Assembly: GCA_943355005.1 (NCBI GenBank)
Contig: CALRDV010000002.1
Coordinates: 131,826 to 195,825 of the forward strand
Source of the DNA: Patescibacteria group bacterium
GTDB taxonomy: Bacteria; Patescibacteriota; Microgenomatia; UBA1400; MFAQ01
DNA length: 64,000 nucleotides
Reading direction: 5' to 3'
The notes beneath the pieces are model-generated. The model was not told the DNA's origin and searched no databases. It worked only from the letters and a program-made list of their open reading frames with translations. Shown here in pieces: positions 8,807 to 57,944 of this stretch. The translations under genes and the position numbers were made by a program. Numbering within the stretch: position 1 is the stretch's first letter; each line of letters starts with the position of its first letter.

Positions 8807-9307
8807 TCATTCCAAGGGCATCTTCTCTCCCGCCCATTTCAAAGCTCTGTCTACCCAGGTCACAGCCGGCTCCTGGTATATCACCTTTTCTAACATCAAA
8901 TTCTTAATTTCATCCTCCTTTTTAGGATCAATTACCACCACCAAATGCCATGGAACGATAGATAGATTTATCCTCATGAGCCTAGTACCCCACTTAGTCT
9001 CAAACCAAAAATTAGTCATCTCTTCATACCTGTAAGTCTTCTCTGTCGATTTTAATCCCCAAGAAGTCAAAGCTGTTTTTATCATCTTCGGTTCAGTCTT
9101 GGCCATGGCCCAAAGCATGAATACAAGCGCCCAAATAACCACTACGGGCATCAGACCCTCAATAAAGTACATAATTATAGACACGAGGAAAGCAATCACG
9201 ATTACGGAACTGTAAAATTCTTTCGTCCAAACTTTATGAGGCCTATCATATGCCTCAAATTCCAAAAGTTCTTTTTCACTGAAATCTAAAGTGTCGGTTT
9301 TAGCCAC
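8807..9307 (-). CDS. Hypothetical membrane protein
   Basis: 166 aa with two central hydrophobic helices (VIVIAFLVSIIMYFIEGLMPVVVIWALVFMLWAM). Confidence 0.4.
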   Translation of the reverse strand: MAKTDTLDFSEKELLEFEAYDRPHKVWTKEFYSSVIVIAFLVSIIMYFIEGLMPVVVIWALVFMLWAMAKTEPKMIKTALTSWGLKSTEKTYRYEEMTNFWFETKWGTRLMRINLSIVPWHLVVVIDPKKEDEIKNLMLEKVIYQEPAVTWVDRALKWAGEKMPLE

Positions 9308-29827: not shown

Positions 29828-31570
29828 TTGACTATGCGACGACTTCAAAAACACCTCAGCCTCATTCTTTTGTTTATTTTTGTATCAATTTCAGTAACTC
29901 TTGCACCAATTACCAGCGCCGCCTCAGGCCCCACTCTCAAAGAAAATCTTTTTGGGCAAGACAACCTTAAAGCTCCCCAAGACTACATAAAGGAATATTG
30001 TGACAAAAGATCGGGTGACCTTATGAATTTAGAAACTTGGTACTCTGGAAAATGTTCTCCAGGAATAGATTCCATGAGTGGTGATGGTGTTGGATTTGCC
30101 GACATAGTGATACTACAGGGTTTGGAATGGTTGTATGGACCACAATACAGTTCTTTTTTAGACAGTCTTATAAAATCTCTAAAATTTATTGAGTCGATAA
30201 AGTCCAAAGCAATATCTGGAGAAATAAAACCAAGTGAAATTGCGTTTGTAGATATGGGTAACATAGGGCTGGTTGGTTCCCTTGGTCGTATAACTACCGG
30301 GCTGGCCAGTGTCAGACCTGCCAGTTCCATGGATTACTTAGCTTATGTCTCCACAAACCTAAAACAACACAAAATCATACCCGATACTTACGCAGCCGGT
30401 CCAGGATATGGATACTCAGCACTAGCACCAATCCTTCCACTCTGGAGAGCTTTTAGAAACATTTCATATCTTATGTTTGCTTTCGCTTTTGTTCTTTATG
30501 GAATGATGATTATGTTTAGAGTCAGAATCGATTCCAAAACCGCAGCTACTATTCAGCTCGCTATTCCAAAATTGATAGCTACTTTAATAATGATTACATT
30601 TTCTTACGCTATTGTTGGATTGCTTGTTGACCTCTCCACTGTGGCCACAGCTATGAGCATAAATATTCTAAAAGCAGGCGGTATTTTAACCTCCTCAGGA
30701 GTAGGAGAGTTCATTCCGCTTGTTGTAAGTGGCCAATCAATATTTGGAGCAATTGGCTCCTTCATTGTTAACACGATAGTAGCAATATTGGTTTCTCCAT
30801 TTATTTTTTTCAATCTTATGGTAGGCGGTTTACTAGGCATAGTTGTAGCCGGCGCAACAGCAATCGTTACAACCTTTGTTCCTTATATAAATGGTATTGG
30901 TCTATTCGTAGGATCACTAATCTTATTCGGAGTCATCATTTCATACGTAAGACTAATAGGTAAACTTTTCCAAGCTTTTATAAGCATTATCGTAAATCTT
31001 ATTTTCGCTCCGATAATATTACTCGGGAATCTATTACCAGGATCAACATCTTTTAGTGATTGGTTAAAAAGTATTTATGGTAATCTAGCTGTCTTCCCTG
31101 TTGCCTGCTTTTTCTTAACCCTTTCTTATGCTCTTATGTGTCAACCCATCCTATCTATTATTGGAAACTTTGGTAGCAGTATTCCCGGCATAAGCCGAGG
31201 ATTTCTTGAATCACTTTTAGGTGTCAACTCACTCTCAACACTAGGAAACATTTGGACACCACCGATGACGATACCTGGTGGAGGAGCAATAGTTAGTGCA
31301 GGAGGAGGCGGATTGGGTAATTTGACAGGTAGTGCTGGAAGCCTAATGCTTGCCACCATCGGCTTTGGACTACTACTTATGTCCAGTAAATATGTCGAAA
31401 TGGTTGAGAAAGCTCTCAAAACTCCTCCATTCCCATACGGAGCTGCCATTGGTGAAGCTCTAAAATCAGGACTAAAACAATCAACTGAACTTGCAAACAG
31501 GAGACCTGGTCCGTCTGTAGCAAAGGATACAGCAAATGTCTTAAACAAAGTGGTTGAGGTAACAAAATAA
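29828..31570 (+). CDS. Polytopic membrane protein, putative VirB6/TrbL-like T4SS channel component
   Basis: 580 aa: a signal anchor, a ~200-aa extracytoplasmic domain, then at least 7 TM helices (FAFAFVLYGMMIMF, LIATLIMITFSYAIVGLLV, FIVNTIVAILVSPFIFFNLMVGGLLGIVVAG, and others). The assignment rests mainly on topology and gene context. Confidence 0.4.
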   Translation: MTMRRLQKHLSLILLFIFVSISVTLAPITSAASGPTLKENLFGQDNLKAPQDYIKEYCDKRSGDLMNLETWYSGKCSPGIDSMSGDGVGFADIVILQGLEWLYGPQYSSFLDSLIKSLKFIESIKSKAISGEIKPSEIAFVDMGNIGLVGSLGRITTGLASVRPASSMDYLAYVSTNLKQHKIIPDTYAAGPGYGYSALAPILPLWRAFRNISYLMFAFAFVLYGMMIMFRVRIDSKTAATIQLAIPKLIATLIMITFSYAIVGLLVDLSTVATAMSINILKAGGILTSSGVGEFIPLVVSGQSIFGAIGSFIVNTIVAILVSPFIFFNLMVGGLLGIVVAGATAIVTTFVPYINGIGLFVGSLILFGVIISYVRLIGKLFQAFISIIVNLIFAPIILLGNLLPGSTSFSDWLKSIYGNLAVFPVACFFLTLSYALMCQPILSIIGNFGSSIPGISRGFLESLLGVNSLSTLGNIWTPPMTIPGGGAIVSAGGGGLGNLTGSAGSLMLATIGFGLLLMSSKYVEMVEKALKTPPFPYGAAIGEALKSGLKQSTELANRRPGPSVAKDTANVLNKVVEVTK

Positions 31571-31689: not shown

Positions 31690-34566
31690 CTAGAAGGTTC
31701 TTCTAGAATTTAGGTAGTCTTTTAACATATCTGCTCCCGGAACTGCATCCGAAATACGGTCGACTATGCTTCGAGCCACTTTTTCACCTGGAGTAAATAC
31801 CACATCAGCTGTTTTTAAGAGAGGGTTTGTAGAATGTCGAATTAATGGACCACCTTGATATTCAGGTAATTCGATTGCCTTTAAATCCCTGGTTTCATCG
31901 TCAATTTTCTTTTGATCATTTTCACCAAAGATCATTCCTCCATCATTAGCGTGTCGCTTGAAGGTCTTTAAAGAATCTACTCTAGCCTTGCCTACCCAAG
32001 CCTTTAACTGATCATAGTATTCTGGAGCCATCAACACATCTGCTGCTTTACCGGCATATCCACCAAAGACGATCATCAGATCAGCCAGTTTCGAAGGTAA
32101 TAAAAATTTTGGCTTATCTCTAGTTTGAGTTGATAAATCCCGGACGTTCAACGGATTATATATACTTAATTCCCAAAGCACGTTTAAACTCTCGTCGAAC
32201 ACTTGTTTATCCGCATCTTTCTTTTTTATCACCCCCAAATCCACCAAAGTATTTAGACTGGTTCTAATATCCGAGAGAAGAACTTGTGCTTTTGGTATTG
32301 CCGAAATTTTATCGGTTTCCGCACCTAGTGCCCCTATTCCAACCGTGATTGCAGTTCTGACTTTATCTCCTGCTTTAAAAGTATTATAGGCATCCATTTC
32401 TGGATGGTTTTTAACCCAGACTGGGTCAGTTAGCTCAGTTGCTTGCAAGAATTCTCCACTCATAGCTCTTTCGTAGTACAGGGCACGCTCTTTAACATCT
32501 TTTCCTTGAGCATCAATCCCTACTTTCCCCGGAACGCGCAGAGCAGAGTTCGCCAAAACTTTAACTTCGTCTGAAAAAGGAACAAACCCTTCAGTTTCTA
32601 TTTTTTTCTTATAGACTTCCAACACTCTTCGAGACCCTGTATAAACTTTCAACTTTACTGCCGCAGCTCTCGATTCTGAAAATTTAAATAATCCATTTAG
32701 ATAATGCTTCCATGTATAGTTTCCTTCTTCCTTGTACGCTTGAAATAGTTGCCAAGCCAAATCTCGAGCATCTTCTCCATATATCGTACCAATCATTTCC
32801 ATAGCTCTAGCTCTATCAGCTGATAGGTATTCAGGGTGAAAGATGTTTTGATCTCGACCTACAAATTGATTTAATCGAGCGTCCCATGGACCGCCAGGAT
32901 CTTTTACATTATTTCCTAACTTTAACAGAACCGAGAAAGCAGCATCAACCTTTTTTGTTGTTGCACCCTCAGCCTCTCCCAAGGAATCTATAGATCTTAA
33001 AAAATCATAAGTTTCATTCAGTATTATCGAAGGACTTGCTGGATTTGATTCGTTCCCCTTCATGTCGCTAATAAACTTTTTCAACCCTTCTGAACTTTCA
33101 TAAGATTTATATGTTTCTTCTTGTATTTGCAACCGTCTTAAATTTACTCTAGCGGAGATTTCTGCTTCCACTTCATTCTTAATTTTCTCTCTCTTTCTTA
33201 AGTCTCCTCCCTCAAGTGAAGTAGGGAAGAGATATACTCCTCCCCCTTTCGAGGTATCTAATCCCATTTCTCTAGAAATTTCTAGAATTAAAGCTTTTTC
33301 GATATCACTCAGTGAAAGTTGAGATTCTTTATCAGTTAATCTTATAATTTCTCGAACTCGTTTACGCATTTCTCGTTTAAAACCAAGTTCGTCGTTAGGA
33401 ATTTCAACAGAACCGGTTTTAACCTCTTTGATCCCAAGAGAAGCATATGCCCTATCTAGGGTGGCCAAATCAGAGGTTAAATTGTTATTTATCCAAGCTC
33501 TTACCAAATTATTCCGTTCTTCGCCAGGATCTTTAGATAGTATCCAATCGATTCCCACACTATTAGTTGCCTCCGTAGCTCTTGGAGTGGGAGTCGGCTC
33601 AGGTGTAGGAGTGGGAATGGGTTCAGGTGCTGCAGTAGGACCATCACCCTCGAATTTCACCCCAAGACTCCTAAGATAATCAGCAGCTACATCCTTACTA
33701 ATCCATCCAATATTGCTTCCATCGCGTCTTCTTCTCGGTTCGAAAGTTTGATCTACATAACCTGCTGCTTCTCTAAGTCGCTGCCTTTCCCATACACCAT
33801 CAGGAGAATCTTCGAGCACAGTATCTCGCAAGTTGACTCCTTGAATCCTTAACTTTTCGACCAACTGTTCTCTTTCGACAGCCGTCATCTCCCCCCCAAT
33901 TTGCTTCAAGTCATCCAATATACTTTGATTATCCTCACCATTTTCAGCTCCACCAACAACCACACCCTCCAGAGGCTTACCGTCACCCTCCTCTTCCCCG
34001 AGAAGTCTGTCAAAATGTGCTCTTAATTCTACTTGATTCTTGTATCTTGATTCATATCTATGATCGGGGTCATCTTCACCTTTAACTGAAATCCATTCCG
34101 CGGAAATAGAACCATCATCTTTAAATTTCTCATATCTAGGTTCATTTTGCCAAGAAGTGTCAGTCTCTGCCGTAACAAGTTCGATTGATTTATCTAACAA
34201 ATCAGGCTCTTTGACTTCGGGGATAACCATATTCACCTTTGCTTGTTCAAAAAGTATGTCTAGCTTTTCTTTCCCTACTCCTAAACCCTCAAGTTCAGCT
34301 AAAACATGTAAACCTTCGCCTTCCAAAGAAGTCAATCCTTCTGACAATGCTACAAGTTTCTCTATGGTTTCAACTTCTAGAACCCCGAGTCCATATGACT
34401 CGGCAAGTTTTTTAAAAATCTCTTCATCCTTATTCCAACCCCACCCATCAGCAGCAAACTTAAGGTCAGCCGCAAAAGTTTCCCCATATCCGGGGTCAGA
34501 CTCATCTGGATGAAAAGAATCATCTTTCCATGATTCTGTGCGTGATGTGATAGTTTCTTTCTCCAT
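31690..34566 (-). CDS. Large hypothetical acidic protein (958 aa)
   Basis: No TM segment, an internal PTPTPEPTPTP linker, and no recognisable catalytic motif. Confidence 0.45.
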   Translation of the reverse strand: MEKETITSRTESWKDDSFHPDESDPGYGETFAADLKFAADGWGWNKDEEIFKKLAESYGLGVLEVETIEKLVALSEGLTSLEGEGLHVLAELEGLGVGKEKLDILFEQAKVNMVIPEVKEPDLLDKSIELVTAETDTSWQNEPRYEKFKDDGSISAEWISVKGEDDPDHRYESRYKNQVELRAHFDRLLGEEEGDGKPLEGVVVGGAENGEDNQSILDDLKQIGGEMTAVEREQLVEKLRIQGVNLRDTVLEDSPDGVWERQRLREAAGYVDQTFEPRRRRDGSNIGWISKDVAADYLRSLGVKFEGDGPTAAPEPIPTPTPEPTPTPRATEATNSVGIDWILSKDPGEERNNLVRAWINNNLTSDLATLDRAYASLGIKEVKTGSVEIPNDELGFKREMRKRVREIIRLTDKESQLSLSDIEKALILEISREMGLDTSKGGGVYLFPTSLEGGDLRKREKIKNEVEAEISARVNLRRLQIQEETYKSYESSEGLKKFISDMKGNESNPASPSIILNETYDFLRSIDSLGEAEGATTKKVDAAFSVLLKLGNNVKDPGGPWDARLNQFVGRDQNIFHPEYLSADRARAMEMIGTIYGEDARDLAWQLFQAYKEEGNYTWKHYLNGLFKFSESRAAAVKLKVYTGSRRVLEVYKKKIETEGFVPFSDEVKVLANSALRVPGKVGIDAQGKDVKERALYYERAMSGEFLQATELTDPVWVKNHPEMDAYNTFKAGDKVRTAITVGIGALGAETDKISAIPKAQVLLSDIRTSLNTLVDLGVIKKKDADKQVFDESLNVLWELSIYNPLNVRDLSTQTRDKPKFLLPSKLADLMIVFGGYAGKAADVLMAPEYYDQLKAWVGKARVDSLKTFKRHANDGGMIFGENDQKKIDDETRDLKAIELPEYQGGPLIRHSTNPLLKTADVVFTPGEKVARSIVDRISDAVPGADMLKDYLNSRRTF

Positions 34567-34622: not shown

Positions 34623-36224
34623 TTAGAGCTTAGTAACATCAATTCCGGCGTCCTGAAGACGTTTCACTACAATTTTATAGCTTTCGGTATTACAAAATGC
34701 AGGTATTATTGCCAATTTAAGGTCAAAATTCATTCCTGCATATTCCAAAAGCTCACGCCCTTCTAGTATGGGGTAGTTTTCAATCACAGGAGCTTCTGGT
34801 TCTGATTCTTCGGGACCACTCGCAATTCCAACACCGTTTAAATAAATCAAAGCTTCTGATTTACTCTTATAAAATTCATTCTTTTTCAGCTTTGGATCCC
34901 ACAAAAACTCTGCGGCGGCGGCAACGAATTCTCTATTCCTAAATCTTTCTATCTCTCCGGGAGAATCCTGAGTCAAAGACATCCTTGGGAGATTAATTCC
35001 CATTTTTCTCATTTTATCTACAACTTCCCATCTATTTTTTCTTTGCTCTGGAGTTAAGGATTCATCAAAAAAAGTAGCGTTTTTCAAATCACCAACGATT
35101 TCAGGATACCAAATAAGTTTCCTTTCTCCGGTCTCTACTTTTTCGATTCTCCCTCCGGCGACATCAACTTCTTGATCTTTCAATATTTTGCTTTCCGCCG
35201 AATCTTCCTCAACCTTTTGAGCCTTCACATTTTCTACTTCTTCGACAAACACCTCCTTTCTTCTTCTCGCCTCTCTCAAGAGATTAAGGTTTATACCTGA
35301 TTTATGTAGTGCTGAATCCATATCTTCCCATTCCTTTGGTTCATCTATTTTTATTTTCAAGAAATCATCTATTTCCTTAAGTATTTTCTTGCCTCCCTTA
35401 TAATCTCTCGACGATTTTTCGGTCACTGGAGGCAACCAACGAATACCGTTTTTTTTGCTTCTATTCTTAACGTCTATCCAAATCTCATTCGAATACTCCT
35501 TATCTGGATATATTACTCTCAAATCAGAAACCAAATGCTCCGTATAGTACTTAATCAAATCCTCCTCAGATACTACTTCTTTTTTTTCAGCTATATTCTT
35601 TTTTCTTTCAACTGCTTCCGTTAACCCCAAAATTCCCATATCTATTGGAAGAACCGTTTTAGTTTCTTTCTTCCAATTTAACAATCCTGCGTCTGGTTGG
35701 GTTTTTTCTGGTAAATCCATATCTATCTGACTGACCACTCTTGCGCGTTCAATTCTCCTTTTCACTTTACCAGGTATTTCGTCAACAACCTCATCTTGAA
35801 TCTCATCTTCCCGCCTCTCTTCTTTTTCACCACTACTTTTTTTAACAATCCCTTCAATTACATCTTTCTTCCAGTTCAAAATCGTAAAATCATCAGGAAT
35901 GTTACCATCTCCTCGTATTATTTCTCTGAGCTGCTTAATTTGATCCCTGAATTCTTCATAAGCAACGCCATTAGTAAAATTCAAAATCTCCCCTTTCTTT
36001 TTAATCGCGACAACCACTATTCCCAGCTCAGAAAAATCATACAAATCTCTCAAATTATTATAAGCATCCACTGTCGCCTGCCTCTGCACCAGATCTTTCA
36101 TATCATCCATCACTTTAAACTCCGTCAAACCTCCAATTTTGAGCAAACTACGATAAACATCAACTTTCTTCCGCACTTCATGCTCAGGCGTTATTTTCCC
36201 TTTATCATCATAATCGAATGGCAT
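34623..36224 (-). CDS. Hypothetical protein (533 aa)
   Basis: A charged, Lys/Glu-rich ORF with no recognised motif. It is convergent or divergent with the neighbouring T4SS-like genes. Confidence 0.45.
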   Translation of the reverse strand: MPFDYDDKGKITPEHEVRKKVDVYRSLLKIGGLTEFKVMDDMKDLVQRQATVDAYNNLRDLYDFSELGIVVVAIKKKGEILNFTNGVAYEEFRDQIKQLREIIRGDGNIPDDFTILNWKKDVIEGIVKKSSGEKEERREDEIQDEVVDEIPGKVKRRIERARVVSQIDMDLPEKTQPDAGLLNWKKETKTVLPIDMGILGLTEAVERKKNIAEKKEVVSEEDLIKYYTEHLVSDLRVIYPDKEYSNEIWIDVKNRSKKNGIRWLPPVTEKSSRDYKGGKKILKEIDDFLKIKIDEPKEWEDMDSALHKSGINLNLLREARRRKEVFVEEVENVKAQKVEEDSAESKILKDQEVDVAGGRIEKVETGERKLIWYPEIVGDLKNATFFDESLTPEQRKNRWEVVDKMRKMGINLPRMSLTQDSPGEIERFRNREFVAAAAEFLWDPKLKKNEFYKSKSEALIYLNGVGIASGPEESEPEAPVIENYPILEGRELLEYAGMNFDLKLAIIPAFCNTESYKIVVKRLQDAGIDVTKL

Positions 36225-36369: not shown

Positions 36370-38055
36370 ATGAAGTATATATTTGTTTCCGGTGGAGTTG
36401 TTAGTGGATTAGGTAAAGGTATCACCTCCTCCAGTATCGGCACACTCCTTCAATCTCAGAGTTTAAAGGTATCCATAATGAAGATCGATATGTATCTAAA
36501 TATCGACGCCGGCACCATCCGTCCCCAGGAACACGGAGAGGTATTTGTCACTGAAGACGGTCTTGAAACAGATCAAGATCTCGGCAACTATGAAAGATTT
36601 TTAGGAATATCTCTAAGAAGAGAAAATTACATGACCGCCGGACAAGTATACAAATCAGTTATCGACCGCGAACGTGCTTTTGGTTACGAAGGAGAAGATG
36701 TTGAAGCTGTTCCTCATGTAACCGACGAAATCATAAACCGTATAACCAACTCCGGCAAAATAAATAACGCTGACATTGTCATTATCGAGCTGGGTGGCAC
36801 TGTCGGCGAATATCAGAATGGTATTTTCTTTGAAGCCAGCCGCATCCTCAAACTTAGAAACCCCAAAGATGTTCTCCAAGTCCATGTTACATATGTACCT
36901 TTCATCAAAACCATAGGCGAGCTGAAAAGCAAACCAGCTCAGCAATCAGTCCAGCTTCTTAACGGTATGGGTATTCAGCCGGACTTTGTAGTCATTCGAA
37001 GCGAACTGCCTATCGACCAAAAGCGGAAGGAAAAAATTGCTGTTTTTAGCAATCTAAATCAACAAGACATTATTAGCAATCCGGATATTCAAAGTATTTA
37101 CAGTCTACCGATGCTCTTCGAAGATCAAAGCTTTGCCGAGAAAATTATCAAAAAGCTAAGTCTTAAGAAAAGAAAAAATTCCTCAGGATTATTAGCTTGG
37201 AAAAAATTCGAGACTGCCCACCAAACATCGAAGAAGAAAATAAAAATTGCCTTAGTCGGCAAATACTTTACTACCGGTGATTACAAGCTGACCGATTCTT
37301 ATGTCTCCGTCATCGAAGCTATCAAACAAGCCGCTTGGACTCAAAGCTTAGATCCGGAACTGGAATGGATAGATAGTACCGAATTTGAAAGAGGAAATAT
37401 TAGCCTAAAAGAGTTCGCCGGCATTATTGTTCCTCAGGGTTGGGGTCACCGAGGAGTAGAAGGAAAACTGATGGCAGTCAAATACGCCAGAGAAAACAAA
37501 ATCCCCTATCTTGGTTTATGTTTTGGTATGCAGATGGCTACCATTGAATTCGCCCGCAATGTTTTGAAATTAAAAAATGCCAACTCTACCGAGGTGGATT
37601 CTAAAACCAAATACCCGGTCGTCCACGTCATGCCGGAGCAAGCCGAATATCTAAAGAAGAAACAATATGGCGGTACGATCCGTCTGGGATCCTGGCCTTG
37701 TCTTTTAAAGCCCGGCTCCACACTGTCAAAAATCTATGAAAAATATAGTATCAACCCAGACTCGCCTTGGTTAACAGACCGAAATATAAATGACACTTCC
37801 AAAAATAAAGCCCAACTCGTTTTCGAACGCCACCGCCACCGCTATGAATTCAATAACGAATATCGGGAAGTTTTCGAAAAAGCTGGTTTTGTTATCTCCG
37901 GTACTTCCCCTGATGGCAAACTTGTGGAAGCTATCGAGCTAAAAAATCATCCTTTCTTTATTGGTACTCAATTCCATCCGGAATATATTGCAAGACCTCT
38001 GACTCCACATCCCATCTTCATGGCTTTTATCCAGGCCTCTTCAAAGAAGAAATAA
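36370..38055 (+). CDS. pyrG: CTP synthase
   Basis: N-terminal KYIFVSGGVVSGLGKGITSSSIG, and a glutamine amidotransferase domain (GLCFGMQMATIEFARN ... H..YE). Confidence 0.95.
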   Translation: MKYIFVSGGVVSGLGKGITSSSIGTLLQSQSLKVSIMKIDMYLNIDAGTIRPQEHGEVFVTEDGLETDQDLGNYERFLGISLRRENYMTAGQVYKSVIDRERAFGYEGEDVEAVPHVTDEIINRITNSGKINNADIVIIELGGTVGEYQNGIFFEASRILKLRNPKDVLQVHVTYVPFIKTIGELKSKPAQQSVQLLNGMGIQPDFVVIRSELPIDQKRKEKIAVFSNLNQQDIISNPDIQSIYSLPMLFEDQSFAEKIIKKLSLKKRKNSSGLLAWKKFETAHQTSKKKIKIALVGKYFTTGDYKLTDSYVSVIEAIKQAAWTQSLDPELEWIDSTEFERGNISLKEFAGIIVPQGWGHRGVEGKLMAVKYARENKIPYLGLCFGMQMATIEFARNVLKLKNANSTEVDSKTKYPVVHVMPEQAEYLKKKQYGGTIRLGSWPCLLKPGSTLSKIYEKYSINPDSPWLTDRNINDTSKNKAQLVFERHRHRYEFNNEYREVFEKAGFVISGTSPDGKLVEAIELKNHPFFIGTQFHPEYIARPLTPHPIFMAFIQASSKKK

Positions 38056-38080: not shown

Positions 38081-39136
38081 ATGGCTATTCAACAGCATCC
38101 ACTACCACAGGACATTAGCTCCTATCGCTTCCGCCTAATTGGCGATATGACTATCAAGCAGTTTGCCTCTCTTGGCATCTGTATTGTTTTAGCCATTATT
38201 GCGTACAGTATGCCCCTCCCTTTCTTTTTTAAATACCCTTTAGCCTTTATGTTTATCGTACTAGGCGTAGGTATGGCTTTTGTCCCCGTTCAAGGACGTT
38301 CTCTGGATGTTTGGATTCTTGCTTTTATCCGTTCCATTTATTCTCCGACTCAATATACATGGAAACGTTCTGAAGAAACTGTTTCAAATGAAATGTCTAT
38401 GAAGAGTAATGGAGTGGGTACTCAAGCAGTTACAAACGCCAGAATCGAACTCACCCAAGCTCCCGCTTCAGTCCCCAATACTCCATCTGTCTCCATCACC
38501 CCTCCTGCATCAGAGCCAAAAACAGAAGAGAGACTCGAAATAACTCCTCCACCATCCGTCATTGCGAACCCGCCTTCAGAGGGTGTGGCAATCCAGGCTA
38601 CAAATCAAACCGAAGTCCCAGTTCCTGAATTAGGAAAAATTATAACTTCCTTAGCCCCAGTAATACCTACCGAGCCGGAAAAACCCACCCAACCAATAAC
38701 ACTTACTGTCATTCCGGGCTTGACCCGGAATCCATCTGGTACATCAGACGCCCAATCGACACCATCCGTCATTGCGAGAGACCTACCCGCTGTGGAAGGA
38801 GCACGGCAATCTAGTTTACCAGCCACCCCATCAACTAACCCTCCCCAGCAAACCCAGCTCCCCATCCCCTACACCCCCACTACCCCAAACACTCTCGTTG
38901 GACTTACGTTGTCTCCGGAAGGTAAAATTTTGGACGGGGTCATGGTAGAAATTCAGAGAAACGGTCTAACTTCCAGAGCCACCAAAAGTAACAAACTTGG
39001 CCAATTTATGTTCGCCAGACCTTTGGAAAATGGCTTGTATCAAATCCTCGCCGAAAAAGATTCTTTTACCTTTTCACCATACTCTTTAGATCTTACCGGC
39101 ACTATTATCCGACCTCTTAAAATCCAAGCACAATAA
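38081..39136 (+). CDS. PrgI/VirB3-like membrane protein with C-terminal carboxypeptidase-regulatory-like domain. It contains in-frame palindromic repeat insertions.
   Basis: The N-terminus (YRFRLIGDMTIKQFASLGICIVLAIIAYSMP ... AFMFIVLGVGMAFVP) has the two-TM PrgI-like pattern. The C-terminus (LTLSPEGKILDGVMVEIQRNGLTSRATKSNKLGQFMFARPLENGLYQILAEKDSFTF) resembles a CarboxypepD_reg beta-sandwich. The central Pro/Thr linker includes VIPGLTRNPSGTS and PSVIARDLP, which are encoded by copies of the dispersed repeats. Confidence 0.45.
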   Translation: MAIQQHPLPQDISSYRFRLIGDMTIKQFASLGICIVLAIIAYSMPLPFFFKYPLAFMFIVLGVGMAFVPVQGRSLDVWILAFIRSIYSPTQYTWKRSEETVSNEMSMKSNGVGTQAVTNARIELTQAPASVPNTPSVSITPPASEPKTEERLEITPPPSVIANPPSEGVAIQATNQTEVPVPELGKIITSLAPVIPTEPEKPTQPITLTVIPGLTRNPSGTSDAQSTPSVIARDLPAVEGARQSSLPATPSTNPPQQTQLPIPYTPTTPNTLVGLTLSPEGKILDGVMVEIQRNGLTSRATKSNKLGQFMFARPLENGLYQILAEKDSFTFSPYSLDLTGTIIRPLKIQAQ

Positions 39137-39138
39137 TC

Positions 39139-39789
39139 ATGGCAGACAACGTTAAATCCTCCACCCAAGAAAGCCTCGATATTTACACTATCAAAAACCA
39201 TTTGGTTTTTCTCAAAGATGGTTCTTGTTCTCTGGTACTAAAAACTACCGCTATCAACTTCAATTTATTATCTGAAGAAGAACAAGACGCCACTATTTAT
39301 GGCTACGCCGGATTACTCAACTCTCTCTCATTTTCTATTCAAATCCTTGTTCGATCTCAACGAAAGAATATTTCCGATTATATAAATCTTCTGGATACCC
39401 GTATTCAAAGTACTCCTTCCCAAAAAGTCAAAGAACAGCTTCTTTCCTATCGTCAATTTGTAAAATCTCTAGTTAAAGAAAATCGCGTTTTGGAGAAAAA
39501 GTTCTATATTATTATTTCTTTCTCTGCTGTTGAGCTTGGAGTTACTAAATCAACCTTTAATCCGTTTGCCAAAACTCCCCAAAAACCTCCTTTTGATATC
39601 GAATATATTGAAGAAAAAGCCTCCATGGCTCTCTATCCTCGACGCGACCACATCATCCGACAATTTGCCAGAATTGGTCTCAAGGCAAGCCAACTCACCA
39701 CCAGCGAACTCGTCACACTCTTCTATACTATTTACAATCCTGGTAGCGTCACCCAACAAATCACTCCGGGTAAATCCGTCGCCTCCTAA
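39139..39789 (+). CDS. Hypothetical protein, possibly a separately encoded VirB4 N-terminal-like domain
   Basis: 216 aa, translationally coupled with both neighbours. Weak resemblance to T4SS ATPase N-terminal domains (LVFLKDGSCSLVLKTTAINFNLLSEEEQDA). Confidence 0.35.
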   Translation: MADNVKSSTQESLDIYTIKNHLVFLKDGSCSLVLKTTAINFNLLSEEEQDATIYGYAGLLNSLSFSIQILVRSQRKNISDYINLLDTRIQSTPSQKVKEQLLSYRQFVKSLVKENRVLEKKFYIIISFSAVELGVTKSTFNPFAKTPQKPPFDIEYIEEKASMALYPRRDHIIRQFARIGLKASQLTTSELVTLFYTIYNPGSVTQQITPGKSVAS

Positions 39790-39818: not shown

Positions 39819-41693
39819 ATGGCTCTGAATCTATTTTCTCTTGGCAAAAAAGCCGCTCCGACAACAGCTGTTGAATCAACGGTACCAGCCAACACGCCTC
39901 CTCATAACTCCAACACTTCGGGGTTAAAGTCCACCGCTTCTAGCCAGTCAGTTCAAGATATTATTGCTCCATCGGCTGTCGAAGTAGATTTTTCTTTTAT
40001 CAAAATAGATGATAACTACGTCCGAACTCTTTTTGTCACTGGCTACCCGCGTTACGTTTCGGCTAATTGGCTCTCCCCCCTGATCAATTTCAACCACTCC
40101 TTGGATATTTCCATGTTTGTTTACCCCTCCGACTCCAAAGATACTTTAGATAGTCTCAGGCGACGCATTGCCGAAATGGAAGCAGAAATAAATACTGATA
40201 TCGAACGAGGTCGTATCCCCCGCGCTGCCACCGAAGCCGGATTAGAAGACGCCAAGGTTCTCCAATCTCAACTTGTTAAAGGAGCAGAAAGATTTTTTCA
40301 ATTCTCTTTGTATATCAGCATCTCCGGAGACTCAGTCAAAGAGCTAGACACTGTTACTGCTCAAGTTCAATCCATGTTGGCTTCCCTCCTTATCATCAGC
40401 AAGGTCGCCTCTTTATCTATGGAGGATGCTTTCAAAACCACTTTGCCGTATTGCAAAGATAAATTAATGTTAACTCGGAACATGGATACCACAGCCCTCT
40501 CTACTACTTTTCCATTTACATCTTCTGAACTCTCTGATAATCAAGGTATTCTTTACGGCGTCAACGCTCATAATGATTCTCTCGTAATTTTTGATCGCTT
40601 CTCTCTTGAGAATGCCAATATGCTCATACTCGCCACTTCCGGTGCCGGTAAGTCTTATGCAGTAAAGCTCGAAATTCTTCGTTCTCTTATGTTCGACTGC
40701 CAAGTTATTATTCTAGACCCGGAAAACGAATACGAAATGGTCACCAAATCTGTCGGTGGCAACTATCTCTCTTTCTCCACCGGTGCTACTCACAAAATTA
40801 ACCCCTTCCAAATCGCCAGACCACAAGATAGCAGTGAAGATGAGATGGGTTACAAATATCTTTTCCTTATGTCGCTTCTAAAAATCATGATTGGTGTCAT
40901 GGATCCTATTGAAGAAGCCACTATGAACCGCGCTTTAGTTCTCACTTATCGTCAGAAGGGCATTTCGGAAGATCCAACTACTCACATTCTGGAGGCACCC
41001 AGAATGGAAGATCTTTATCGTGCTCTTATCGGCATGGAAGAAAGTGTTTCCAAGACTTTAGCTGCCAGACTAGAAAGATATGTCATGGGTGGTGTAAAAG
41101 GTATTTTTGATCAGCAAAGCAATATCGACATCAATGCTCCCGTCACCGTTTTTACTTTAAGGGACACTGCCGACGAAATTCGCCCTATTATCATGTTTAT
41201 GATTCTAGACTTTGTTTGGAACCAAGTCCGCAAAGACTTACGCAAAAGAATTCTCGTTGTCGATGAGGCTTGGTACCTCATGAGATACGAAGATTCCGCC
41301 AAAATTCTTCAGGGTTTTGTCAAACGCGCACGTAAATATTACTTTGGTGTATCTATCATTTCTCAGAACGTCGACGACTTTCTTGGTTCAGCTTACGGCA
41401 AAGCTATTATTACCAACTCTGCCCTCAAACTCCTCCTTAAACAATCCTCAGCTGCCATCAATCAGATCTCTGAAGTCTTCTATCTCTCTCAAGGAGAGAA
41501 ACAACTTCTTCTCTCTGCTGGCCAAGGTGAAGGTATTTTCTTCGCCGGTATGAATCACGTAGCTATCAAAATTATTTCCTCTGCCGACGAACATGCACTT
41601 GCTACCAGTAAACCGGCCGAAATTCTCGAAGCCAGAAAGAAAGAAAAAGAAGCTCGAGAAGCTGAAATCGCAGCCGATAAAGCCAACACCTAA
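39819..41693 (+). CDS. VirB4/TrbE/CagE-family T4SS ATPase
   Basis: Walker A NMLILATSGAGKSYAV, Walker B RILVVDEAWYLM, and an N-terminal YVRTLFVTGYPRYVSANWL segment typical of the VirB4 family. 624 aa. Confidence 0.75.
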   Translation: MALNLFSLGKKAAPTTAVESTVPANTPPHNSNTSGLKSTASSQSVQDIIAPSAVEVDFSFIKIDDNYVRTLFVTGYPRYVSANWLSPLINFNHSLDISMFVYPSDSKDTLDSLRRRIAEMEAEINTDIERGRIPRAATEAGLEDAKVLQSQLVKGAERFFQFSLYISISGDSVKELDTVTAQVQSMLASLLIISKVASLSMEDAFKTTLPYCKDKLMLTRNMDTTALSTTFPFTSSELSDNQGILYGVNAHNDSLVIFDRFSLENANMLILATSGAGKSYAVKLEILRSLMFDCQVIILDPENEYEMVTKSVGGNYLSFSTGATHKINPFQIARPQDSSEDEMGYKYLFLMSLLKIMIGVMDPIEEATMNRALVLTYRQKGISEDPTTHILEAPRMEDLYRALIGMEESVSKTLAARLERYVMGGVKGIFDQQSNIDINAPVTVFTLRDTADEIRPIIMFMILDFVWNQVRKDLRKRILVVDEAWYLMRYEDSAKILQGFVKRARKYYFGVSIISQNVDDFLGSAYGKAIITNSALKLLLKQSSAAINQISEVFYLSQGEKQLLLSAGQGEGIFFAGMNHVAIKIISSADEHALATSKPAEILEARKKEKEAREAEIAADKANT

Positions 41694-41695
41694 CC

Positions 41696-44695
41696 ATGGC
41701 TAACTACGAAAAAGAAATTAAGGAAGCAGTTGGAGTCCTTGATTATCTCGATAGAAAAATCGATTACAACGAGGAACCAGAAGCCGCAAAATGGTTATCT
41801 TCTGGATTCTTTTACTACAAAGAATACTTTCGTTTAAACAAAAATCCAGAGTTCAAATTTGACCAAAAAGTCGAAAATTACGATTCTTTTCAAAAGAATG
41901 TAGAAAAACCAGTCTTCAACAAGATTATTCAATTTTATATTTCTCTACAGAATCTTCCGGATGAAGTTTATCGTAATGTTCCAATTCGTTTTTTAGGAGA
42001 ACCAGAATTAGTTAGTGATGGCAGAGTAAAGATAAAAATTCATTTTAATGAAATATTTGTCAGAGGGTTACTCTCAGACATTCCCAGCTATCTCGAACTA
42101 GATACAGGGTCTATTTCCAATATTGATGATGTCTTAAAAGTCGGAGATATTAAGACTCCAGACAATATAAAAGTAATAACCAGTGAAAATGAAATTATAG
42201 TTTCCCTTACAGACCTCCAAGAAAAGGAAACTCCTACTACAGTATCAACAACCGATGAAAAAATAAGTGAAGAAGAGGTAGCTGATACGAAAGAATTAAC
42301 AGAGCAGGCTAACCTTGAAGAAGAATCGATAAAACCCAAAGAACTGAATGTTGGCGATGCTGGAAGTGTCCCTCCCGAAATAGAAAGTCTTGTTGGTGAA
42401 TACAAAAAGAATCTTAATCGTTTAAATGAGCAAGAGATCAAAGATAATCATCAAAAATCCGTTGCAGAACAAGTAAAAATCGCAATTGAACACTCAAATC
42501 GACGAGAATTAATATTGGCGAACCGGCGAGAACGAGAAGCAAAGGGTGAAAAATTTCAAGACCCGGACCAGGTAATTGTTAGTTATGGCTCTCCTAAGGA
42601 CAACACTAAAGAGGATGCTCTTCAACTATCCTTTAATGCAATTGAACGAACGGCGACACTTTACAGTGGTTTCAAAACACTTCCTAAAAACATACAAAAA
42701 CAAATAGTCTTTCAGGCAGTAGAACTAAATACTATTGGAATTTTCGATTTGGATGCCGCTATTCAAACAGCTTCATACCAATTAGGAATTAAGGGTATAA
42801 CCTCACCTTTTGTCTCAAGTATCTTCGAAGAAATAGATCACGAGGACAACTTTTTAAAAGAAACCGAATCAAAACTTCATCAAAATGAAAAATCAATCGA
42901 TTTCTTGAAGTCTAAAAACACTCTTACCGAATCAGAACGACAGTCTCTTATTAAACTAATCAAGGAAAACGGAGATCTTTCGACAAACCTTGGAAAAATC
43001 CCCACAAATTTTAATAGTTTTCTTTTATCCAATGAAGACAAATTTAAAGAATATTCCAAAATCATAGACCACAAAGATGCTGATCCTAAAGACGTTCTAG
43101 ACCTAAAAGAAAACACTTTAGATGCCAACAAAAAGATACTATCTATCCAAAAAAACTTACTTCTTAACGGTATCCAACCTAAAACATTCACAGATTTAGA
43201 TAAAATTAATGGTCTCGCTGAAGCCATTCAAAAGGATTTAAAAGTTCTAAATAAAAACGCTACTTATGAAGGATCATATTCCGCAGCTGTTGTCGGAATG
43301 GCTCCTGGAGGCTCCGGCGAAGCCCTTGTAATTCTAAATTTTTCCAAAGGATTAACAGGTGAAACTCTTCGCAAAGCAGAGGCCTTTGCTTTAGCAAATC
43401 CAAAATCAGCTACAGCTATATTTTTAAGGAACAACACTAAGACCGTTGAGATTGCTCGAAGTTACATTAGAAAAATAGAAAATTCCCCTCTAGGAAAAGA
43501 AATTCTACCCGCTATAGGGAAAGCCAATTTTATTATTAGTGCAGTAACAAACCCCGTTGGAGCCTTAAAAAGCTGGGCCGGCAAAAAAGCCGGCGAACAA
43601 TTGGCTATCCGCATTTCGGAAAAAATTGGAAATGAAGTACTCAAAAATGCGGCAAATACCCTACTTACTCAAGGAATGAAGGGGGGGGTAAAAAAACTAG
43701 CATCAGAAGCGGCTACCAAAATGGCCGCTAAAGTTGCCACTTGGGCAGCGGTCAAACTCGGTATAAGTCTTTCAGCTGAATCCCTAAACGCTATCATGCC
43801 TGGTCTTGGAGTAATTGTGGATATTGTCATCCAAGCAATCATATGGGTTGCTGAAAAAACAATCGGTCAAGTTAAGAAAAATTTAGATTCTCTATGGAGA
43901 GAGATGGGCTGGGGAGAAGAATTCCGCACGCGAGATATCATAGTTCCTGTAGTAGCAGTCGTCGCAACAGCAACCACCTTCGTCATCGCCAAAGGTTTTA
44001 TTATAAAAAAAGCGACCCAAATAGCGGCCATCTCAGCTGTCAAGATACTCCTTTCCGCAGGAGGTTTTATTCTTGCTTATGTCATGTTCGCCTACCTTGT
44101 TGCTCCAATTCTATCCACTTTAGTCCAGTTCGACAGTCTCGAAAAAGTCGAGTACCCATCTGCAACATCAAACGAACCGGCTATTCCGGGGTGTCCGTCT
44201 CGATGGCCTGTCACAGGTTCATTCAGAATCACTCAAGGACCGGGTGGTAAATATTCACATTACAGCTCCGGATACGACCAATCTGTAGATATTGCTGCCC
44301 CATCAGGTACAACTGTATTTAGCACCTCAGATGGAATTGTCAGTTTTGCCGCCGTCTCCGGACCATATTTAAATACAAATGTTGTTTTTGTTGACTCTAA
44401 ATTACCAGACGGAAAGTCTTTTCAAGTTATCTATGCTCACTTAAGTTTTATGAAAGTACACAAAAACGACAAAGTTAAAGTTGGAGATATAATTGGATCT
44501 TCAGGTACAGCCGGCTCCGGAGCTCACTTACACTATGAGTACAAGGGGATTAAGTACAATCAGTGTCCGGCCGGAAACTTAAAATTAGCCGAAAACTGCG
44601 ATTCCCACTCAGTTCCGGGAGCAGGCTTCAGATGTGTACCCGACGTCGGCACCTTCTTATATACTAATGGTGGAGCTGGAATAGTAGGGCATTAA
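41696..44695 (+). CDS. Large (999 aa) membrane-associated protein with C-terminal M23 (LytM) peptidase domain, a putative T4SS-associated cell-wall hydrolase (VirB1 analog)
   Basis: The C-terminus has YDQSVDIAAPSGTTVFSTSDGIVSF ... YAHLSFMKVHKNDKVKVGDIIGSSGTAGSGAHLHYEY (HxxxD / HxH M23 metallopeptidase signature). There is a long coiled-coil/charged middle and TM helices around residues 740-790. Confidence 0.65.
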   Translation: MANYEKEIKEAVGVLDYLDRKIDYNEEPEAAKWLSSGFFYYKEYFRLNKNPEFKFDQKVENYDSFQKNVEKPVFNKIIQFYISLQNLPDEVYRNVPIRFLGEPELVSDGRVKIKIHFNEIFVRGLLSDIPSYLELDTGSISNIDDVLKVGDIKTPDNIKVITSENEIIVSLTDLQEKETPTTVSTTDEKISEEEVADTKELTEQANLEEESIKPKELNVGDAGSVPPEIESLVGEYKKNLNRLNEQEIKDNHQKSVAEQVKIAIEHSNRRELILANRREREAKGEKFQDPDQVIVSYGSPKDNTKEDALQLSFNAIERTATLYSGFKTLPKNIQKQIVFQAVELNTIGIFDLDAAIQTASYQLGIKGITSPFVSSIFEEIDHEDNFLKETESKLHQNEKSIDFLKSKNTLTESERQSLIKLIKENGDLSTNLGKIPTNFNSFLLSNEDKFKEYSKIIDHKDADPKDVLDLKENTLDANKKILSIQKNLLLNGIQPKTFTDLDKINGLAEAIQKDLKVLNKNATYEGSYSAAVVGMAPGGSGEALVILNFSKGLTGETLRKAEAFALANPKSATAIFLRNNTKTVEIARSYIRKIENSPLGKEILPAIGKANFIISAVTNPVGALKSWAGKKAGEQLAIRISEKIGNEVLKNAANTLLTQGMKGGVKKLASEAATKMAAKVATWAAVKLGISLSAESLNAIMPGLGVIVDIVIQAIIWVAEKTIGQVKKNLDSLWREMGWGEEFRTRDIIVPVVAVVATATTFVIAKGFIIKKATQIAAISAVKILLSAGGFILAYVMFAYLVAPILSTLVQFDSLEKVEYPSATSNEPAIPGCPSRWPVTGSFRITQGPGGKYSHYSSGYDQSVDIAAPSGTTVFSTSDGIVSFAAVSGPYLNTNVVFVDSKLPDGKSFQVIYAHLSFMKVHKNDKVKVGDIIGSSGTAGSGAHLHYEYKGIKYNQCPAGNLKLAENCDSHSVPGAGFRCVPDVGTFLYTNGGAGIVGH

Positions 44696-44697
44696 TT

Positions 44698-45720
44698 ATG
44701 AAAAACTTAAAAGAATTTTTCCAAAAAATTACTCAATCCCCAAAAATACTTGTACTTGTAGGTATTTTTCTGTTTTTCTTCATCATCGTACTTATAATTC
44801 TTTTTAGCGGTAAACCTACGGAAAAAGATGCCACTTCCATTACTCCAACACCTACACCGGTGGTCGGAATTATTACCATGGAGGAACCTGTCCCCACCCC
44901 AACGCTTAAAATTGTCTGGACTACTCAAGATTTAAATGTCCCAGAGACTATGGACATATTCTCTATTAAAAATCCTCTAATAAATCAAAAAACAGGCGAT
45001 CTTTTGGCTCAAAAGCTTGGATTCGAATCAAGCAACGAACAAGAATCTATCAGTGAAAATCTCCGGATCTGGTCAAAAGGCTCCGCTTCCATCATTCTCA
45101 ATTTTGAAGACAATTTACTTCAATACTCCGCAGGAACATTACCTCAACTAGCAGTACAAAACGTTACTGACGATACCTATTTTGTTACGGCCAGAAATTA
45201 CTCTCAGAATGTCTTTGGAATTGGTACAGCTCAGGGATTAATAAACCACAGTGTTACGTATTTAGATGAACACGACGCCCCCATTAGTTCGGATAAGGCA
45301 GTGGTCATTAGGGTTTCTTTTTACCAGTCGGTAAATGTTTTACCTGTAGCCACCATTTCACAATCAGGTGCAGTTTTCACCCTTTATCTAGACAAAAAAC
45401 TATCACTCCTAAGTATGTCCGTCAAAAATGCCTACTCAGAATTATCTTCGCTTGGCAAATTCAAGACAACGCCCCTAGTTGATTTAATAAGCAACTCGGA
45501 TTCCATGGCATTAAGAATAAATGCTTCCAGTAATCAAGATATCAGTTCAGAAATGGTGTCTTCAAAAACAATTACTTTTAATCAGGCTTCAGCCCAAACT
45601 GCCTATCTCTCAAAAGAAAATCAGTTAATACCAGTATATCTATTAAGTGGCACTGTTAGAGCCGGTATCGTTCAAAATCAACCTGGTCTATACATCCTCC
45701 CCATTATTCTTCCACAATAG
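44698..45720 (+). CDS. Membrane-anchored hypothetical protein, candidate VirB8-like component
   Basis: 340 aa: an N-terminal TM anchor (ILVLVGIFLFFFIIVLIILF), a PT linker, then a globular domain. The assignment is by position after the M23 protein and by the bitopic topology only. Confidence 0.3.
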   Translation: MKNLKEFFQKITQSPKILVLVGIFLFFFIIVLIILFSGKPTEKDATSITPTPTPVVGIITMEEPVPTPTLKIVWTTQDLNVPETMDIFSIKNPLINQKTGDLLAQKLGFESSNEQESISENLRIWSKGSASIILNFEDNLLQYSAGTLPQLAVQNVTDDTYFVTARNYSQNVFGIGTAQGLINHSVTYLDEHDAPISSDKAVVIRVSFYQSVNVLPVATISQSGAVFTLYLDKKLSLLSMSVKNAYSELSSLGKFKTTPLVDLISNSDSMALRINASSNQDISSEMVSSKTITFNQASAQTAYLSKENQLIPVYLLSGTVRAGIVQNQPGLYILPIILPQ

Positions 45721-57257: not shown

Positions 57258-57944
57258 TTGGGTTACAATACCGTCATGAACAAATACATCCTTAAAGCAG
57301 AGAAGCGTGTCCTTCTTGGTAGTAAAGTTAAGAAACTTAGGCGTTTGGGGACTATTCCGGCTAACGTTTTTGGACACACCATCGTAAGTCAGGCCATCCA
57401 AGTTTCGGAAGTTGAATTTAATCGTGTATACAAGCAAGCCGGCGAAACCAGTCTTATTTGGATCAAGATTGAAGGTGAAGACAAAGAAAGACCCACCTTA
57501 GTTAAGGCCCTTACAAACAATCCAATTACCGGTCAGAAATACCACATCGATTTTCACCAGGTGAATCTAAAGGAAAAAGTTACTGCGAACATCCCTGTCG
57601 AGTTAGTGGGGGAAGCTCAGATGGTCAAAGATGGTCAAGCTATTATTGATCTCAACCTTCATGAAATTGAAGTTGAAGCACTCCCCACAGATTTACCAGA
57701 GAGTATCGATTTTGACATCTCTCTTCTTAAAGAAATTGGTGATTCCCTCAAAGTTGGTGATGTTAAGTTGTCATCCGAAGTTACTGTTCTAACCGATTCT
57801 GAGATGACCGTCGTCGCTCTTGGAGCTTTACAGAAAGAGGAAGCTCCTCTGGAAACCGAAGTCTCCGAAGATGTTACCGGAGCCGTCGAAGGCGCTGAGG
57901 GTGAAACCAAAGAAGGTGATAAAGCAGAAGCCAAAACTGAATAA
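57258..57944 (+). CDS. rplY: 50S ribosomal protein L25 / general stress protein Ctc
   Basis: The N-terminal beta-barrel domain (LGSKVKKLRRLGTIPANVFGH ... VEFNRVYKQAGETSLIWIKIEG ... VKALTNNPITGQKYHIDFHQV) and an acidic C-terminal tail. Confidence 0.85.
   Translation: MGYNTVMNKYILKAEKRVLLGSKVKKLRRLGTIPANVFGHTIVSQAIQVSEVEFNRVYKQAGETSLIWIKIEGEDKERPTLVKALTNNPITGQKYHIDFHQVNLKEKVTANIPVELVGEAQMVKDGQAIIDLNLHEIEVEALPTDLPESIDFDISLLKEIGDSLKVGDVKLSSEVTVLTDSEMTVVALGALQKEEAPLETEVSEDVTGAVEGAEGETKEGDKAEAKTE

Follow-up and report, generated by a model that had tools for sequence, protein, structure and literature searches.

We analysed a stretch of 64,000 nucleotides (hereafter the window) from a Patescibacteria group bacterium (assembly GCA_943355005.1, contig CALRDV010000002.1, positions 131,826 to 195,825 of the forward strand), with a focus on a large gene that lies in a type IV secretion system (T4SS) cluster and encodes a putative T4SS-coupled, membrane-anchored peptidoglycan hydrolase. 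The gene occupies positions 41696-44695 of the plus strand as a single open reading frame (ORF) of 999 aa, as taken from the ORF list and the translation, and the same gene call is present in a public assembly, where it carries the Pfam domains TL5_C and M23. An earlier note on this DNA had placed the start of the gene 2 nt after the stop of a virB4 gene, and both parts of this claim hold. The ATG lies exactly 2 nt past the TAA stop of the upstream gene (TAACCATG), and this upstream gene (39819-41693, plus strand) encodes a VirB4-like ATPase of the CD1110 family (Pfam P-loop_TraG, 3e-26; NCBIfam NF045971, 7e-106, above cut-off). In turn, 2 nt past the stop of the hydrolase gene starts a gene (44698-45720, plus strand) for a protein of 340 aa, which consists of an N-terminal transmembrane (TM) helix detected by a TM scan, a Pro/Thr-rich linker and an ectodomain. 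This protein is called the cognate partner below. Comparison of 11 sequenced loci showed that the C-terminal head of the hydrolase is inherited together with the downstream membrane-anchored protein, and that the two are exchanged as a single cassette.

Upstream of virB4 there are two further T4SS genes on the plus strand. One of them encodes a TrsD/TraC-like protein, a homologue of the VirB4 N-terminal domain (39139-39789; NCBIfam TrsD, 2e-06, and matches to VirB4 N-terminal models), the orthologues of which bear PF26593 (TraC-like). The other encodes a PrgI-family (VirB3-like) membrane protein with two TM segments (38081-39136; Pfam PrgI, 6.6e-08, above cut-off). With 351 aa, the PrgI/VirB3-like protein far exceeds the typical length of VirB3, and it has a long extracytoplasmic C-terminal extension rich in Pro, Thr and Ser together with a beta-rich C-terminal part. 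Between relatives it is 67-78% identical, compared with 86-96% for VirB4 or TrsD. Downstream of the partner gene, dnaN and dnaA are found on the opposite strand, and then yidC and jag.

The genomic context was available for 10 relatives with DNA and for one more without DNA, which is known by gene lengths alone. The gene order PrgI, TrsD-like, VirB4, hydrolase, one small gene, dnaN and dnaA was found in 10/10 relatives with retrieved context. Furthermore, the hydrolase gene directly follows virB4 in 11/11 loci, with 2-nt or overlapping junctions, though other neighbours vary. The close homologues are labelled Candidatus Collierbacteria in the source records. Among the window ORFs of at least 150 aa, neither a relaxase nor a coupling protein was found. 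The cluster is a chromosomal, oriC-proximal, monoderm-type (MPF-FATA-like) T4SS of a Collierbacteria-like genome. Chromosomal, oriC-proximal T4SS of the monoderm type have been described in Patescibacteria, including Microgenomatia, by Quinonero-Coronel et al. (PMC12102498), and the window cluster agrees with this description, also in that no relaxase and no coupling protein turned up among ORFs of that size.

Architecture of the hydrolase family

Relatives of the hydrolase comprised 18 full-length proteins from word-index searches and 48 clusters at E <= 1e-30 from an exhaustive search of representatives. In 55 family proteins, the third of three hydrophobic helices ends with the near-invariant motif AP[LIMV][LI]S[TA]LVQ[LF][DEQ]S (APxLSTLVQxDS). 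This junction motif, which reads A803-P-I-L-S-T-L-V-Q-F-D-S814 in the window protein (44102-44137, plus strand), is the border of the conserved body and the swappable head. The 159-212 residues past the motif (~185 aa in the window protein) belong to four unrelated head classes. The M23 head is found in 41/55 proteins and the CHAP-like head, with a weak match to Pfam CHAP, in 7/55, followed by the C39-like head (Peptidase_C39_2-like; 4/55) and the Amidase_2 head (3/55). The expected catalytic residues are kept, namely Cys and His in the CHAP-like and C39-like heads, and His, His, Lys and Asp in the Amidase_2 heads. In addition, proteins with different heads are intermixed in the phylogeny of the N-terminal body. 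Thus, P0001 with an M23 head and P0002 with an Amidase_2 head are mutual nearest neighbours by body (69% identity), and the closest body to that of P0006 (CHAP-like) is that of P0013 (M23), with 66% identity. This hydrolase family of Microgenomatia (Collierbacteria-like genomes) is previously undescribed.

One explanation would be that the protein is a housekeeping autolysin, acting for example in cell separation, and a mere neighbour of the T4SS genes near oriC. The gene does lie in a chromosomal region amid pyrG, dnaN, dnaA, yidC, rpoD and dnaG, and M23 enzymes commonly act in cell division. However, the tightly packed position after virB4 is invariant in all 11 loci, the large family-specific and presumably cytoplasmic body is found in T4SS context only, and swaps from one enzyme class to another are not typical of division hydrolases. 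We consider this explanation very improbable.

The three hydrophobic helices lie at aa 697-719 (43784-43852, with the conserved D708), aa 747-769 (43934-44002) and aa 776-803 (44021-44104), all on the plus strand. They were recognized by hydropathy (Kyte-Doolittle for helix 1) and in the family alignment, and AlphaFold2 (AF2) models the first two as helices 704-736 and 746-763. By hydropathy the third segment spans 776-812, and in the AF2 model it is one continuous helix, 772-815; three helices and not four are modelled. The TM helices that the earlier note had expected near residues 740-790 are thus present, but they are not limited to that interval. No signal peptide was found in the hydrolase. 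The ~100 residues before helix 1 are strongly basic, and the flank after helix 3 is acidic with few positive charges. In addition, the heads of all four classes have conserved cysteines, as expected of extracytoplasmic domains. Because of the missing signal peptide, the basic flank before and the acidic flank after the helices, the three AF2 helices and the Cys-containing heads, we favour a topology with the N-terminus inside, three passes and the head outside, with a chance of roughly two in three.

The body of the window protein begins with a conserved N-terminal head (aa 1-85, starting with MANYEKEI; 41696-41950, plus strand), which aligns with the N-termini of family members and is modelled with a predicted local distance difference test (pLDDT) score of 73-91. 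A lineage-specific insert follows (aa ~86-215; 41951-42340, plus strand; Pfam PF14693), which comprises a beta domain like the C-terminal domain of bL25/TL5 and an acidic linker. The rest of the body is a family-conserved all-helical domain (aa 216-696; 42341-43783, plus strand), presumed to be cytoplasmic, the final ~100 aa of which form basic amphipathic helices. The N-terminal region, which the earlier note described as coiled-coil-like, is not uniformly so: AlphaFold gave a confident multi-helix N-terminal domain (pLDDT 85-95 at residues 1-85 and 220-600), and the bL25-like beta domain (~58-180) had been overlooked.

The insert was recognized by a match to TL5_C (PF14693) at aa 94-172 (1e-11, 45.5 bits vs a cut-off of 27), and bL25/Ctc models of NCBIfam and bL25 chains of the PDB match it as well. 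Over 128 residues, the bL25-like stretch shares 32% identity with the bL25 of the genome itself (BLASTP, 3e-19), which is encoded at 57258-57944. Because the thresholds of the whole-protein bL25 equivalogs were not reached, we regard the insert as a domain copy and not as a ribosomal protein. An origin by recent duplication of the genome's own rplY was ruled out, the identity being only 32%. The ~130 residues of the insert correspond to a gap in 18/18 aligned homologues, and the insert is absent from all 171 other related proteins that were fetched. It shows that the hydrolase body tolerates large insertions.

The M23/LytM metallopeptidase domain of the window protein spans aa 836-950 (44201-44545, plus strand). 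The match to Pfam Peptidase_M23 (PF01551) covers residues 862-950 with 4e-17 and 62.6 bits, above the curated cut-off of 28.7, in agreement with the C-terminal M23 domain of the earlier note. NCBIfam and PDB searches also gave M23, and the domain has an M23 fold. The domain is followed by a Cys-containing tail and the stop codon (aa 951-999; 44546-44695, plus strand), for which 41 M23-type tails were aligned; C957 and C968 are conserved in 37 of the 41. The complete catalytic signature HxxxD...HxH that had been claimed for this domain was found only in part. The middle His (H915) and the HxH (H944-L-H946), which in M23 supplies the third zinc ligand, are present, but the canonical HxxxD spacing is not, as the HNGTD of ShyA aligns to D861-Q-S-V-D865. 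The sole nearby His is H855, 10 residues before D865 (Hx9D). When 12 M23-type members were aligned, H855, D865, H915, H944 and H946 were invariant, whereas column 861 was variable. Furthermore, D865, H915, H944 and H946 are invariant in 41/41 M23-type tails, and every one of these tails has a His 6-9 residues before the Asp. The invariant order His, Asp, His, His, His corresponds to the catalytic residues of M23, only with a wider first motif. Profile alignments place the family His at one of two positions: opposite the canonical His, with a 5-residue gap (9gy1), or opposite a non-ligand His further upstream in LytM. Loss of the metal-binding His upon alignment, which the earlier note took as the mark of a degenerate LytM domain, is formally seen at the canonical column; nevertheless, the invariant upstream His (H855) probably substitutes for the canonical Zn ligand. 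We infer that the M23 head is catalytically active, with an Hx6-9D motif as its zinc site. A first Zn ligand more than 3 residues ahead of the Asp also occurs in LasA-type M23A enzymes and in phi29 gp13. The structures 3it5 and 3csq are among the weak profile matches of the head (E 2e-03 and 2e-04, respectively). LasA/beta-lytic protease (M23A) and phi29 gp13 have the catalytic fold, the HxH and the middle His in common with the window head, but their sequence similarity to it is weak, and H855 is a putative equivalent of their first Zn ligand.

Alternatively, the head could be a degenerate, non-catalytic LytM module that binds proteins, like B. subtilis SpoIIQ, EnvC, DipM and Csd2, and that builds an extracytoplasmic part of the channel together with the partner. 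The canonical first Zn-ligand His is replaced (D861), the close structural matches include the non-catalytic Csd2, EnvC, SpoIIQ and DipM, and the LytM domain of PrgK was reported to be regulatory and not catalytic (PMC12857230). In addition, the strict pairing with a partner that is described below would suit a binding module. However, the four canonical catalytic residues and the upstream His are invariant across 41 diverged sequences, whereas degenerate LytM domains usually lose several catalytic residues. The other three head classes also keep their catalytic residues throughout. Because swapped heads of other classes keep these residues, enzyme activity appears to be what selection maintains, and a degenerate module is an unlikely explanation in our opinion.

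The partner gene and the exchange of cassettes

The window partner has a handful of homologues, and it is homologous only to partners at M23-type loci. It gave no match in Pfam, PHROG or PDB, the profile search of PDB being empty, and no similarity to VirB8/NTF2 was detectable in profile searches. Its ectodomain is of the alpha/beta type, and its AF2 model is poor (pLDDT 43). At each compared locus, the product of the small downstream gene has the same three parts, with an N-terminal TM helix followed by a Pro/Thr-rich linker and then an ectodomain.

To describe the co-variation of head and partner, 11 sequenced loci and one locus known by gene lengths alone were available, and the partner family matches the head class in 11/11 sequenced loci. 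At the six M23 loci, the partners have 326-354 aa and are mutually homologous (BLASTP, 2e-04 to 1e-103, the L006/L007 pair reaching only 7e-03). At the two Amidase_2 loci, the partners have 337 and 339 aa and are 45% identical (3e-88). Meanwhile, the partners of two CHAP-like loci are much shorter (138 and 146 aa; 62% identical), and that of one more CHAP-like locus without DNA has 134 aa. The single C39-like locus has its own partner type of 153 aa, of which this is the only example. Similarity of partners across head classes is limited to the TM helix and the linker. The possibility that all partner classes are one fast-evolving family gained no support, as a hidden Markov model of the M23 partners (n = 6) matches the others over the TM helix and linker only, with 2.5-13 bits. 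Common ancestry of the partner ectodomains across classes is not supported by these comparisons. Within the M23 class, the partners are 21-46% identical to the window partner, in genomes whose VirB4 is ~90% identical. The window partner is evolving extremely fast.

The genes around the cassette are well conserved, and VirB4, dnaN and dnaA are ~80-96% identical between the compared genomes. For example, L001 and L005 are 96% identical in VirB4, 94% in TrsD, 92% in DnaN and 95% in DnaA, and 65% identical in the hydrolase body, while head and partner are unrelated. At the DNA level, the identity of these two loci is 80-88% through virB4 and becomes a mosaic of 39-93% within the body. Just past the junction motif it falls to ~35% and stays there as far as the partner gene extends, before it returns to ~80% at dnaN; the drop from ~85% to ~35% is bounded exactly by the motif and the end of dnaN. 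Conversely, L012 and L001, which belong to different sub-clades, are 38% identical in the body and 84% in VirB4, and their Amidase_2 heads and partners are 70% and 45% identical, respectively. Because of the identity break between L001 and L005 and the sharing between L012 and L001, head and partner can be regarded as one exchangeable cassette with sharp boundaries. The hydrolase body is 46-68% identical between relatives, compared with 89-96% for VirB4. The whole hydrolase gene is a divergence hotspot, evolving far faster than its neighbours.

Within the body mosaic of L001 and L005 (10001-12103 and 10001-12031, respectively), two genomes with ~85% identity elsewhere, blocks of 39-60% identity alternate with blocks of 85-93%. 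This pattern suggests several recombination tracts or hypervariable segments besides the head/partner cassette.

In CdiA-CT/CdiI, Rhs, LXG and X-Tfe/X-Tfi systems, as in the window family, a conserved body, putatively one for delivery in the window family, is followed by variable heads past a demarcation motif and by a co-varying downstream gene. It is possible, though in our view rather doubtful, that the cassette is a polymorphic effector/immunity pair, whose head acts on the wall of a host or competitor at the T4SS contact, being displayed, released near the junction motif or translocated. The partner might then be a cognate immunity protein that shields the wall of the producer, and the head type might match the wall chemistry of the host and set the host range, a suggestion that we make only tentatively. 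Three hallmarks of polymorphic toxins were found: a conserved body carries four unrelated catalytic heads, a near-invariant demarcation motif marks the swap point with the DNA identity break just after it, and the downstream gene tracks the head in 11/11 sequenced loci and moves with it between clades. Furthermore, hydrolase and partner are a divergence hotspot amid nearly constant VirB4, dnaN and dnaA, with only 21-33% identity even for M23-type partners, and all partners have a TM anchor and an ectodomain, i.e. they face the compartment that would need immunity to a wall hydrolase. The T4SS of Patescibacteria are relaxase-less and suspected of effector delivery to hosts (PMC10633639, PMC11665869). 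In Xanthomonadales, a T4SS delivers wall-hydrolase effectors that have cognate immunity proteins, and the toxic domains of this X-T4SS include peptidoglycan hydrolases (PMC6759196).

However, polymorphic toxins and X-Tfe proteins differ from the window family, which is single-copy per genome, has no orphan head or immunity modules (dnaN directly follows the partner gene) and has hydrophobic helices just before the head. Given these three helices and just ~20 aa of linker, the head would be tethered near the membrane of the producer, and no cleavage site or secretion signal was identified. Moreover, X-Tfe proteins carry their conserved recognition domain at the C-terminus, not at the N-terminus. 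The hydrolases of monoderm conjugative T4SS are likewise modular (PMC12857230).

Other genes of the window

The remaining genes of the window are housekeeping genes, including pyrG, rpoD, dnaG, tdk, znuABC, uppS, leuS, tmRNA and tRNAs. The pyrG gene (CTP synthase; 36370-38055, plus strand) lies between acidic minus-strand genes and prgI in the window genome only, and the relatives L001 and L003-L007 have no gene at this position. The products of the two minus-strand genes (31690-34566 and 34623-36224) are large and very acidic, without TM segments or matches to any family. Their position upstream of prgI is conserved in all relatives, and their number and lengths vary (958+533; 756+749; 939+658; 816+517; 844; 731; 942+375 aa). 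They appear to make up a second hypervariable region in this locus, and they are candidates for T4SS substrates or cytoplasmic components.

Further upstream on the plus strand, a Cys-rich secreted protein of 991 aa (26825-29800) and a polytopic membrane protein of 580 aa (29828-31570) are encoded, both syntenic in relatives. The polytopic protein is a candidate for a VirB6-like channel subunit, a component that has been reported to be scarce in Microgenomatia. A second hydrolase was considered in the 991-aa protein, whose terminal FYGEGAFNPGS recalls motifs of lytic transglycosylases (SLT), but this impression gained no support from Pfam or PDB. In addition, an ORF of 166 aa (8807-9307, minus strand), ~30 kb from the T4SS cluster, has a borderline match to Pfam VirB3 (23.4 bits vs a cut-off of 23.9). 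Two more proteins are related to the cell wall, namely a 584-aa protein with a SpoIID domain (19324-21078, minus strand) and a 575-aa VanW/PG_binding_4 protein (61957-63684, minus strand). The GC skew is negative in every 2-kb bin of the window (1-64000); even at dnaA/dnaN (~46-49 kb), presumably the region of the origin, it does not change sign.

Proposed role at the secretion system

We propose that the protein is a T4SS-coupled, membrane-anchored peptidoglycan hydrolase with a cognate partner, and from the sequence comparisons we give this proposal a probability of about 0.6. The hydrolase gene would probably be translationally coupled to virB4, and the body of the protein would stay in the cytoplasm and dock on the VirB4/TrsD/PrgI machine. 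The three helices would put the Cys-containing head outside the membrane, where it may cut the peptide cross-links of peptidoglycan at the secretion site. The downstream protein would bind its cognate head and restrain or position it, as an inhibitor or an immunity-like partner.

Several points weigh against this proposal. First, docking of the body on VirB4 is suggested by gene order, and searches with the N-terminal body matched no T4SS component or fold that is known; the fast evolution of this body would be unexpected for a simple structural adaptor. Second, the loop between helices 1 and 2 averages ~5 Lys/Arg, which makes positive-inside statistics ambiguous, and given these residues a cytoplasmic head is the alternative topology. 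Third, the column of the canonical Zn-ligand His holds Asp in the window protein and is unconserved in the family; because the loop of H855 is modelled at pLDDT <50, zinc binding by this residue can only be inferred. Finally, the partner has no recognisable fold and a poor model, and its suggested role as inhibitor or positioner comes from co-variation only.

The proposal can be compared with PrgK (pCF10), TraG (pIP501) and Orf14 (Tn916), the VirB1-like membrane-anchored peptidoglycan hydrolases of monoderm conjugative T4SS (PMC12857230). Like them, the window hydrolase is encoded in a T4SS cluster beside virB4. Unlike them, it carries one M23 head with Hx9D and no SLT, muramidase or CHAP domain: searches of Pfam, NCBIfam and PHROGs gave only M23 and TL5_C in the window protein, and no SLT/muramidase or CHAP/NlpC-P60. 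Some family members bear a weak CHAP-like head instead. It also differs in its ~700-aa, presumably cytoplasmic helical body, in having three hydrophobic helices rather than one, and in the swapping of head and downstream gene as a cassette between near-identical genomes.

In Candidatus Southlakia epibionticum (Saccharibacteria), peptidase and lysozyme homologues downstream of virB4 are described as essential for epibiotic growth (PMC12102498 citing PMC10633639). By this description, wall hydrolases lie directly after virB4, in the chromosome and with no relaxase, as in the window. However, that species belongs to Saccharimonadia and not to Microgenomatia, and neither of the two papers reports a fused body-TM-head protein, a junction motif or a co-varying partner. 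Non-canonical hydrolases are expected in the VirB1 role in Patescibacteria; in surveys, linkage of canonical VirB1 homologues to virB4 was rare, and few components could be recognised in Microgenomatia (PMC12102498). In the only species of Patescibacteria examined for this, the T4SS proved essential to epibiotic growth, and its role has been called completely unknown (PMC10633639, PMC11665869).

The VirB1-type modular hydrolase of the earlier note stands as far as the tightly packed monoderm T4SS cluster is concerned, the order of which is kept in 10 relatives. However, a plain housekeeping VirB1 role predicts neither head swapping nor fast evolution, and an effector/immunity-like or host-interaction role accommodates both at least equally well. 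An own-wall hole-puncher would not obviously need four chemistries, a co-transferred partner and rapid divergence. The target wall may be the cell's own (VirB1-like) or that of the host (effector/immunity-like). The safest statement is that the protein may be regarded as the T4SS-coupled hydrolase of this lineage and as a functional analogue of the VirB1-like enzymes, with a large machine-side body and an extracytoplasmic partner.

Modular VirB1-like enzymes are textbook knowledge. In contrast, neither the architecture of body, three helices, junction motif and swappable head in Microgenomatia nor the strict co-variation with a downstream membrane-anchored partner is described in the literature searched, and the same is true of the Hx6-9D M23 variant and the bL25-domain insert. 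The Hx6-9D motif broadens the range of sequences known for M23 enzymes that are likely active, and it cautions that a motif scan by itself is no sufficient ground for calling such a domain degenerate.

The sequences might also be read as a built-in, exchangeable "warhead plus antidote" cassette in an oriC-proximal T4SS of Microgenomatia, whose head would act on the host wall where epibiont and host are in contact and whose partner would protect the producer, with the head class as a rapidly evolving determinant of host range, but we regard this as unlikely. If true, a T4SS of Patescibacteria would have its first assigned effector/immunity pair, and the fusion of a toxin to a membrane protein bound to the machine would represent a polymorphic-toxin architecture of a new kind.

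As a putative T4SS-coupled hydrolase with a cognate partner, the family would fill the hydrolase slot of the T4SS in Microgenomatia. Within a locus that is otherwise nearly frozen, this slot would be the part that recombines and that evolves the fastest, with an obligate travelling partner. The four head/partner pairs may offer a concrete and cheap experimental route into the function of the T4SS in these candidate phyla radiation (CPR) bacteria.

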